Source: an uncultured Thermococci archaeon (GTDB taxonomy: Archaea; Methanobacteriota_B; Thermococci; Thermococcales; Thermococcaceae). Taken from it: a stretch of 16,371 nucleotides of DNA. A program made the position numbers and the translations under genes. The stretch is from the NCBI GenBank assembly GCA_964615185.1, contig CAZTOS010000052.1, positions 1 through 16,371 on the forward strand, read 5' to 3'. A model generated the notes under the pieces. That model was not told the DNA's origin, ran no database searches, and saw nothing but the letters and a program-made list of their open reading frames with translations. Shown one piece after another: positions 1 to 2,550 of the stretch; position 1 is the stretch's first letter; each line of letters begins with the position of its first letter.

Positions 1-428
1 TTGTCGTTGGGTATCCTAAAGAAATTGCAAGAGAACCTAATAAGGGTAAAAAGCAGAACTTCATACTCTCCCACGTCTGGCGTTTCAATTACGTTATCAA
101 ACGCTTAACTGAAGTTGCGGAAGAGTATGGTATTCAAGTTGTAATCACGGATGAGGCTTTCACTTCAAAAACTTGCCCCCTCTGCGGCCAACGCCATCCA
201 AACGGGCGTATTTTTAGAGGTTTGTTTAAGTGCCGCAGAGAGGGCGTTGTAATGAACGCTGATTTAGTTGGAGCTTTCAACATTTTGAAGAAGGTTGTGA
301 GAACGATAACCCCGAACTTGGGCGGTTTGCATGCCCAAGGGAGGGGTAACTGGCCGGAGACCCGGCCAGAGGGGCTGAAGTTAAGTTATGAAGCCCCTCA
401 AACCTTCCCGTCCATGGCGAGGGGTTAA
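1..428 (+). CDS. tnpB: RNA-guided endonuclease TnpB (IS200/IS605 OrfB), 5'-truncated by the window edge
   Basis: Frame from nt 3 is open to the TAA at 426-428: VVGYPKEI...[37 protein letters not shown]...[19 protein letters not shown]. This contains a zinc ribbon and the RuvC-III NAD motif typical of TnpB. The track ORF 222..428 is its C-terminal part. Confidence 0.93.
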
Positions 429-469
429 TTTATTGGAACCCTCGCCCTTCACGGCGGGGAGGAGGTCAG
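1..469 (+). mobile_element. Right part of an IS200/IS605-family insertion sequence; right end at about TCAG 466-469
   Basis: tnpB is followed by a subterminal hairpin (CCTCGCC-cttcac-GGCGGGG, 440-459) and GGAGGAGGTCAG. Host coding sequence resumes at 470. Confidence 0.88.
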
Positions 470-489
470 TTAGCACTAAAAGCAAAAGA
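306..489 (+). ncRNA. Putative TnpB omegaRNA/reRNA scaffold overlapping the tnpB 3' end, with guide from flanking DNA (about 470-489)
   Basis: Stems 317-323/333-339, 350-357/362-369, 369-376/392-399 and 440-446/453-459, plus a possible long-range pairing 307-313/421-427. Position matches known TnpB right-end RNAs. Boundaries are approximate. Confidence 0.7.
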
Positions 490-625
490 AAATGGAGAGG
501 AGAAAGTTATCCTATTCAATCTAAGCGGGCATGGATTATTGGATCTGAAGGGTTATGAGGACTTCCTGGAGGGTAAACTCCAAGACTATGAACCTAAAGA
601 AACTCAGATTGGAAATGGATATTAA
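470..625 (+). pseudogene. trpB2: 3' fragment of a TrpB-like PLP-dependent enzyme (TrpB2), interrupted by the IS
   Basis: Manual translation [51 protein letters not shown] carries the [11 protein letters not shown]-terminal signature of TrpB2. There is no in-frame start between the TGA at 389-391 and nt 470. Confidence 0.88.
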
Positions 626-1267
626 TCACGTGTGGCCTATTTTCTTTACAATTTTTTCAGGATAGAAGCTTAAGGACGCTTTAGCCTGTGGAATTTCCAT
701 CCCTATAGCAACTCCAAGGCTCATTAAATCTCTCGGAGCCCTAACTTCCCACTTACTTTCTGCTGAGGATGTAAGGAATCTTGGAACCTTATACTTCTCA
801 ACAAGCTGCCAGTTCTTCATCATGAACTTCAAAATGTTAGCCCTCTCATATGGATTTGCCCTTAAAAGCTGAGATATAGAAAAGCCAATTGCAACGTCAT
901 TCTTTGCGGCAATTTTTGCAAGAACATGGTCAAATCCGTTATCTTTCCTCCCAAATTCTGGGCTTATAAGGGCATCAACGCCAATTTCAAGGGCAAAGCG
1001 GTTAACTTTCATATTGCCTCCCTGAACATAAATTAAAGCCTTGAGATTTCTGTTTTTGATTTCTCTAATTAGTGAGGGTTTGTTTGTAATCACGAGAAGA
1101 GCAACTTTTTTGTATTTCCCCCTAAGCTCTCTGATTTCTTCTTTCAGCTTTTCATAATCTGGACTGCCGTTTAATGGGAGCTTTTTAGTAAAAACTACCT
1201 CATCATACCACTCCTCAGCCAACTCGTAAGCTTTCTCATCCCTGATGTCCAGCTCAATCCATTTCAT
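626..1267 (-). CDS. rnp3: Ribonuclease P protein component 3 (Rpp30 homolog)
   Basis: 213 aa with motifs [22 protein letters not shown] and [14 protein letters not shown]; lies in the usual neighbourhood of rpl15e. Confidence 0.92.
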
Positions 1268-2475: not shown

Positions 2476-2550
2476 TCACCTCGCTTTCACTGTTTGTGGT
2501 TCTCCGCAGAGCGGAACATCCCGCGGGTTTCCCCGCCCAGTCGAGGTGAG
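2476..2550 (-). promoter_or_regulatory. Structured 5' leader of rpl15e (probable eL15 ribosomal leader)
   Basis: On the mRNA, UCACCUCG (2549-2542) pairs with CGAGGUGA (2483-2476, the Shine-Dalgarno). The helix encloses GCGGG-GAAA-CCCGC (2536-2523) and UUCCGC-UCU-GCGGAG hairpins. Confidence 0.75.

Follow-up and report, generated by a model that had tools for sequence, protein, structure and literature searches.

A fragment of a TrpB2-like enzyme stands directly behind the right end of a TnpB-encoding insertion sequence in the genome of an uncultured Thermococci archaeon. This raises the question of whether the element split trpB2 and, if so, whether RNA made from its right end would direct TnpB against intact copies of the same gene. 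The window analyzed here comprises the first 16,371 bases of contig C52 in a genome (G000) of 138 contigs that is 95.6% complete; named matches to a sibling TnpB suggest that it belongs to Thermococcaceae. Because the window begins where the contig does, it contains no sequence 5' of the element. The reading that we consider highly probable is that a non-autonomous IS200/IS605 element, pasted at a TGAC motif, splits trpB2 and leaves a null allele, and that it carries a trpB2 guide with which a TnpB with a rearranged RuvC-II site would cut empty alleles. Two gene features flank the right end of the element.

Positions 470-625, plus strand: 3' remnant of trpB2, cut off from the gene's start and comprising codons 396-446; it includes the NLSGHG motif, before which there is no in-frame start.
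Positions 626-1267, minus strand: rnp3 (RNase P protein component 3), intact and convergent with trpB2 (NF003023, 369 bits, above cut-off).

Translated in frame, positions 470-625 give 51 residues and a stop, which match positions 395-440 of the 441 in the TrpB2 profile NF009057 (E 1e-12), with TIGR01415 also matched; the intact trpB2 ortholog of the nearest species, G002, matches the solved TrpB2 chains 6hul_B, 4qys_B, and 6hte_B at E 1e-143 or better. The initial annotation was right to read a TrpB2-like end from a codon boundary immediately after TCAG, and to place it flush with its neighbor, as the trpB2 stop (623-625) directly adjoins the rnp3 stop (626-628, minus strand). In four of seven same-genus genomes, no more than about 50 nt separate rnp3 from the trpB2 stop. 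In G002, ~4.3 kb of methionine-synthesis-like genes (assigned by eye; C15:27818-32147, L181) lie between trpB2 and rnp3, and these are absent there in the window. Further along, at window positions 2493-2536 on the minus strand, an eL15-Euryarchaeota leader scores above the Rfam gathering score.

The missing 5' half was found on another contig. A search with the intact TrpB2 of relatives recovered codons 1-395 at C130:418-1602, ending in Ile-Asp at residue 395, the dipeptide that had been expected just before the insertion and that 18 of 19 relatives share. The two parts add up (395 + 51) to 446 codons, the frame length in six of seven same-genus genomes, the seventh being cut by a contig end. 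Joined at nt 470, as the initial annotation had proposed for the left flank, they restore the 446-codon gene in frame, split at the codon boundary after Ile-Asp and without duplication. The matching empty site, TTGAC followed by TTAGC and likewise without duplication, is present in trpB2 of G003, G006, and G007, and the gene order on both sides of the split (C130 and C52) is that of relatives. The split is, thus, real, and the element divides trpB2. The 5' part reads on into 28 foreign residues without the NLSGHG motif and the 3' part lacks a start, so the allele is probably null. Rescue as a split gene was considered and rejected, as a TTG at 539, beyond the NLSGHG motif, is the sole in-frame start codon in the stretch 392-622.

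The remnant had also been described as undegraded, which is accurate for codons 396-439 (no private amino acid relative to six intact relatives) but less so for codons 440-444, where four private changes fall in a stretch that is variable among the relatives too. The accompanying suggestion that the insertion is recent stands relative to the species split, as no decay was seen across the 395 codons of the 5' part in comparison with intact relatives. It does not extend to the divergence of strains, since the same junction occurs in a strain whose flanking gene differs by about 1%; the insertion either is older than part of the strain divergence or has passed between strains. Decay was also tried as a clock and rejected, the 5' part having four private amino acids versus 14 private synonymous codons and intact relatives having 3-10 versus 5-64.

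The element itself is represented in the window by the following features, all at its right end.

Positions 3-428, plus strand: 3' part of tnpB, the last 141 codons (NF040570 and PF07282 matches; 79% identical to the intact paralog on contig C56).
Positions 9-11, 153-155, and 261-263, plus strand: RuvC residues of the tnpB fragment, namely Gly at the canonical RuvC-II position, an alternative Glu, and the RuvC-III Asp (C56 numbering D202/G292/E340/D376).
Positions 436-439 and 440-459, plus strand: right-end DNA guide tetramer GAAC and subterminal UUCA-loop hairpin, visible in the sequence and conserved across copies.
Positions 466-469, plus strand: right-end cleavage motif TCAG, the final bases of the element (right-end search, 15-copy alignment, and empty sites in G003, G006, and G007).

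In the right-end search, 21 of 27 rows stop at the 469 boundary (20 at TCAG, one at TCGG) with varied bases beyond, the other six being left-end hairpins or cut ends; conservation is likewise lost after the TCAG in the alignment of 15 copies. At the opposite end, codon 395 on C130 is followed by a T-rich left end with a hairpin after CAAG, then by a 52-residue ORF (C130:1721-1879, L021) whose stop overlaps the tnpB start, and finally by 121 tnpB codons that run to the contig end. Subterminal hairpins at both ends, with no terminal inverted repeats, are IS200/IS605 traits. No tnpA is present in the assembled part of the element; the one intact tnpA of the genome (PF01797 match over cut-off) lies in trans, on contig C16, in a copy whose left end is of a second type (AAAG). 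C130 and C52 do not overlap, and TnpB residues 123-289, including RuvC-I, fall in the unassembled middle; the RuvC-I Asp, whose position in the trpB2 copy falls in this gap, is present in paralogs. One metagenome contig with the same insertion (L022), which starts inside tnpB and may share its source with the genome under study, narrows the gap to residues 123-231, with RuvC-I still within it. Three of the five paralogs with both ORF ends assembled are frameshifted.

The 52-residue ORF weakly resembles ribbon-helix-helix (RHH) proteins (Pfam E 0.065; Atlas neighbors 0.94), and an RHH-like ORF of 50-55 residues overlaps the tnpB start in seven copies within transposon ends (C130, C1, C27, C42, C56, C61, and C113). 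This recalls the archaeal RHH/MazE-TnpB clade, in which a small RHH-like gene also stands upstream of tnpB and the active site is also rearranged (PMC10691335). That clade is described in the same source as non-mobile and possibly toxin-antitoxin, with the RuvC-III Asp changed to His in a named branch, whereas the family studied here keeps the RuvC-III Asp and has at least seven copies inside transposon ends; the RHH-tnpB pair here behaves as a mobile element. In the TnpB fragment, the alternative Glu (Glu51) follows Gly3 by 48 residues, an arrangement shared with C56. Comparison with solved structures returned distant Cas12f/TnpB chains only, and the closest named plasmid records were Sulfolobales TnpBs at 41-42%. 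A promoter scan with a bacterial-type model, which is not suited to archaea, returned no sigma-70-type site. Elsewhere in the genome, minimal fused-end elements of about 50 nt occur on C6, C13, and C32, and gene-less elements of about 400 nt that keep the RNA scaffold occur on C1, C4, and C31.

The left ends identify the target. At trpB2 the flank is TTGAC, from the codons ATT GAC, and the initial annotation's forecast of TTGAT, the ISDra2 motif, proved wrong: ATT GAT occurs in none of 19 relatives, and TTGAT precedes none of 15 CAAG-type ends. The left-end count is based on 23 rows in the genome, one of which was dropped as a false match, leaving 15 CAAG-type and seven AAAG-type ends. Among the former, 12 of 15 follow TGAC (11 of 14 distinct flanks), with one TGAT, one TGGC, and one unresolved, and the base preceding TGAC varies; among the latter, none of the seven follows TGAC and five have motifs ending in TAC. 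On C6, for three sites of AAAG type or without assignment, the corresponding empty site of G002 carries TTAC. Thus, the target of the CAAG-type family is TGAC, and insertion occurs 3' of the motif without target duplication. In other genomes the rule is looser, as CAAG ends follow TGAC in three of six cases and TGAT in two of six, and one of four AAAG ends follows TGAC. The target motif, then, covaries with the left-end DNA guide (CAAG with TGAC, AAAG with TAC-ending motifs), with one exception among the 10 ends elsewhere. The pairing rule of IS608 fits both CAAG with TGAC and GAAC with TCAG. The predicted TAM of this TnpB is NTGAC, perhaps TGAY. Both end types are combined with a single kind of right end and RNA scaffold while their targets differ, and the TnpBs on C56 and C16 should differ in TAM, with a TTAC-like motif predicted for C16, which would make them a natural pair for mapping specificity.

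Several characterized systems share parts of this arrangement. TvTnpB of Thermoplasma volcanium (TnpB2) cleaves at NTGAC, which matches the motif at its left end (PMC10530073); like the family here, it has Gly/Pro at RuvC-II with an alternative Glu about 45 residues on, a left-end TGAC, and a right-end ncRNA. The likeness is one of motif arrangement, and TvTnpB has its own tnpA, in place of which the trpB2 element has the RHH-like ORF. ISDra2 of Deinococcus radiodurans is also pasted 3' of a short motif without duplication and also takes its guide from the right flank, but its target is TTGAT and its RuvC-II Glu is canonical (PMC8612924), in contrast to TGAC and Gly in the trpB2 element. In Geobacillus stearothermophilus, with its ISGst elements and PATEs, a single TnpA acts on several end families, gene-less derivatives exist, and the target motif covaries with the left-end DNA guide (10.1101/2023.03.14.532601); there, the host is bacterial, the motifs are others, and activity was measured, whereas that of the trpB2 element is predicted. 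A Sulfolobus TnpB, finally, uses TTTAA (PMC11579290, 10.1101/2023.03.06.531077).

The question of what RNA the right end would make turns on two further features.

Positions 304-469, plus strand: predicted omegaRNA (reRNA) scaffold, HgcC/sot0042-like, overlapping the tnpB 3' end (Rfam, fold, and covariation).
Positions 470-489, plus strand: predicted guide of about 16-20 nt, equal to trpB2 codons 396-402 (by analogy with ISDra2; target, TGAC plus guide).

No Rfam family matched the scaffold at its gathering threshold; below that score, sot0042 (RF02656) matched 304-460 (E 2.8e-8, 36.8 of 88 bits) and HgcC (RF00062) matched 349-482 (E 8.3e-7, 35.5 of 50 bits). The right end is structured: the fold of 304-469 has a z-score of -6.0, none of 200 shuffles was equally stable, and 10 of 37 consensus pairs carry two-sided changes across 15 copies. 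Gene-less copies retain the scaffold region, beginning at the same 5' motif. Five listed RNA sequencing runs contained at most 0.06 of the sequence words searched for. HgcC RNAs arise from transposase genes in T. kodakarensis (PMC4247193) and have the same right-end UUCA tetraloop hairpin (PMC4615843). As in these and in the sot0042 RNAs, the predicted RNA lies over the tnpB 3' end, and the element's right end resembles the end of the HgcC consensus; the scaffold differs from them in scoring below the gathering threshold and in being known from sequence. Because 304-469 resembles an omegaRNA scaffold of the HgcC/sot type, the right end likely encodes an omegaRNA that ends in a trpB2-derived guide. 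In ISDra2, the last ~16 nt of the reRNA come from the flank (PMC8612924), and the flank that would form the guide here is trpB2 coding sequence, as first annotated, since 470-489 lies in codons 396-402. With the element sitting in trpB2, the guide RNA should match intact trpB2 copies.

The two gene halves, both element ends, the TGAC target, the matching empty sites, and the structured right end are the direct observations on which we build the following sequence of events. A non-autonomous IS200/IS605 element of ~1.6 kb (left end, RHH-like ORF, tnpB, omegaRNA, and right end) would have been pasted into trpB2 on the 3' side of TGAC without target duplication, giving a presumably null allele; the most likely agent is the sole TnpA of the genome, working in trans. 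The omegaRNA made from the right end would then finish with 16-20 nt of trpB2 (codons 396-402), and with it the RuvC-II-rearranged TnpB, from this copy or a sibling, would cut empty alleles at an NTGAC TAM. Such cutting would restore the element after excision, and may have aided its takeover of the first cell's chromosome copies, with the loss of trpB2 presumably tolerated by the host.

That the loss would be tolerated is suggested by the absence from the genome of the other pathway genes searched for and by the frequent loss of trpB2 in the family. Specifically, no TrpB1, TrpA, or TrpD scored over cut-off in the 95.6% complete genome, TrpA was found in one of eight genus genomes, and a search for the trpB2 3' end succeeded in 77 of 97 genomes of the family (64 of the 79 of good quality). 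A lone TrpB2 may serve in indole salvage. Two short-frame cases of trpB2 were inspected: in G043 (C1, L182:1328-1330) the gene is frameshifted near codon 350-355, and in G019 (C62, L183:793-1140) an independent, gene-less element of the same family lies in the trpB2 3' end on the opposite strand, after TTAC. The latter is about 12 codons downstream of the site studied here, and most of the upstream gene is missing at that locus. P. horikoshii also has a lone trpB2, the function of which was left open in the source consulted (PMC1854888). Elements of the same family interrupt an S9-type peptidase gene elsewhere in G000, and probably also a third gene, on C3; gene-breaking insertions by this family are, thus, ordinary there. 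The peptidase gene (646 residues, named by sequence) is split at TGAC (C39:20975 and C27:10806), and the empty site has TGAC in three of five relatives. The copy at C27:10806 carries the left flank of another site, and the same flank is seen on C1.

The predicted guide has few matches elsewhere in the family. TGAC plus the 20-nt guide, with up to two mismatches, occurs in three of 96 other family genomes, namely G003 (no mismatch), G006 (one), and G007 (one); G002, the nearest species (94% in the rnp3 region), has AGAT and six guide mismatches, and so is not among the targets. Within G000, no self-target of the trpB2 guide was found (TGAC plus 12 nt, one mismatch), and the sole match to the longer pattern was the filled site. 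A different filled site does have an empty counterpart in the same assembly (C27:26395 and C1:15977; TGAC plus 12 matching bases), as a possible self-target or a strain mixture. Viral targets were considered and set aside as chance: the 32 exact 18-nt matches all have 3-6 mismatches over the 20-nt guide, bear no TrpB2 similarity, and lie in unrelated contexts.

One alternative, which we regard as possible but doubtful, is an active drive in which the trpB2-guided TnpB cut empty alleles at TGAC, both on chromosome copies and on incoming DNA, and so spread the null allele through the species. Its extension to trpB2 is reasonable because T. kodakarensis is polyploid, with 7-19 chromosome copies (PMC4502288). 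Further, TnpB drives elements through multicopy plasmids by cutting element-free copies, fixing insertions that disrupt genes (PMC11870625), although that work concerns E. coli plasmids and makes no mention of archaea. Homing at the empty allele was proposed for ISDra2 (PMC8612924), and restorative homing has been reviewed (PMC13565253). The vent metagenomes are consistent with such a spread: each of four runs, from four studies, has a contig that reaches across the filled junction (two of them, X2, possibly the source sample, and X4, under a 31-base junction criterion), and no contig end indicative of an empty allele was found at 470 among the loose ends listed (24 of 118). Differences are few overall, five in 523 nt for the X4 contig, and those listed for X3 and X4 start at 630 or later, save one at 491. 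Yet, a common insertion is equally explained by descent from a single ancestor, and contigs drop rare alleles. In X3, two contigs diverge at window position 491, one with an A to C change in the remnant and the other compatible with a filled or an empty allele. Gene conversion also equalizes chromosome copies in polyploid haloarchaea without TnpB (PMC8223754, PMC11276520), trpB2 is lost or broken elsewhere without a trpB2 guide, and this copy's TnpB, its middle being unassembled, may not be intact. Drift and ordinary gene conversion fit the data as well.

A second alternative, which we consider unlikely, is that the halves on C130 and C52 are no longer adjacent, owing to recombination between copies or to metagenome assembly joining different copies, and that the element as described is a chimera. 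The copy on C27, with flanks of two different sites (the left of one joined to the right of another), shows that shuffling or misassembly of element halves can occur. Compared in bins of 60 nt, the copies prove to be mosaics of one another, from gene conversion or from assembly, and L022, although identical over 2,931 flank bases, has 21 differences inside tnpB (window 95-179). Even so, the original insertion would still be one event, given the exact codon complement, and the gene order on both sides is as in relatives. Moreover, the element part on C130 is nearly identical to paralog C56, as are the first 60 nt of L022, which argues that the C130 and C52 halves belong to one element.

The trpB2 sequence around the insertion site bears on a third alternative, and includes one more feature.

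Positions 470-523, plus strand: right half of a patch of G003/G006/G007 type (about -16 to +54 around the site) in a G002-type gene (informative sites).

Within the patch, 18 of 19 informative sites are of G003/G007 type, and in the flanks 17 of 18 and seven of eight are of G002 type, so that the TGAC target was supplied by a patch of sister-clade type of 70-108 nt. This could mean that recombination or homing brought in the element with its short flanks from the G003/G006/G007 clade, the patch being a co-converted tract, which we judge to be quite improbable. The patch is sharply bounded and includes the insertion site, the target is found only in that clade among 96 family genomes, and the 5' part of the element is matched in G003 and G007 but not in G002. 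The contrast between 22 mismatches to G002 and two to G007 in 76 nt (a difference of 20) exceeds all background windows, none of 35,782 reaching 16, but the patch edges were chosen after seeing the data, and a symmetric window gives 14, which six background windows reach. Mosaicism is also common in the background: equal one-sidedness is seen in 65 of 4,937 runs of 18 informative sites, and about 8% of the sequence (4,721 of 59,225 nt) falls in tracts with at least 14 of 18. Kilobase-long G003/G007-type tracts at C6:15800-20800 indicate frequent recombination between these species. Among eight other right ends compared with relatives, flanks on both sides could be aligned to G002, G003, and G007 at the C39/C27 site only, and this single control showed no clear patch, with only two informative sites nearby. 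The insertion is absent from G003, G006, and G007, and the element resembles the genome's own copy C56 (97%) more closely than any G007 copy (81% at best). Homing by TnpB is not a good fit, because a G002-type recipient, with AGAT and six guide mismatches, would escape cutting. A patch acquired first, with local transposition into it later, is the simpler order. The boldest alternative, a natural TnpB drive across the species boundary in which the element and 70-108 nt of flank homed from the G003/G006/G007 clade and then made a trpB2-guided sweep, is the least probable of all; were it true, G003 would still be convertible, as it has a perfect TGAC plus 20-nt target in an intact trpB2.

The preferred reading, of a local insertion at TGAC that split trpB2 and left a guide against it, describes the expected behavior of a common mobile element in a heat-loving vent archaeon. 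TnpB homing and plasmid drive have already been published (PMC8612924, PMC11870625), and the value of the locus is mainly practical because the mechanism is known. In literature searches that covered few subscription journals, no work was found that combined TnpB, Thermococcus, and TGAC, none was found on TsiTnpB, and a test of TnpB drive on a polyploid archaeal chromosome was absent among the matches listed. In this context, the locus offers a well-defined TnpB family from a hyperthermophile of vents, with TGAC as a target derived from empty and filled sites, an HgcC-like RNA, and an intact paralog (C56), and with a natural, perfect trpB2 target in the related species G003. It may, thus, serve as a test case for whether TnpB helps to fix a recessive null insertion among many chromosome copies.
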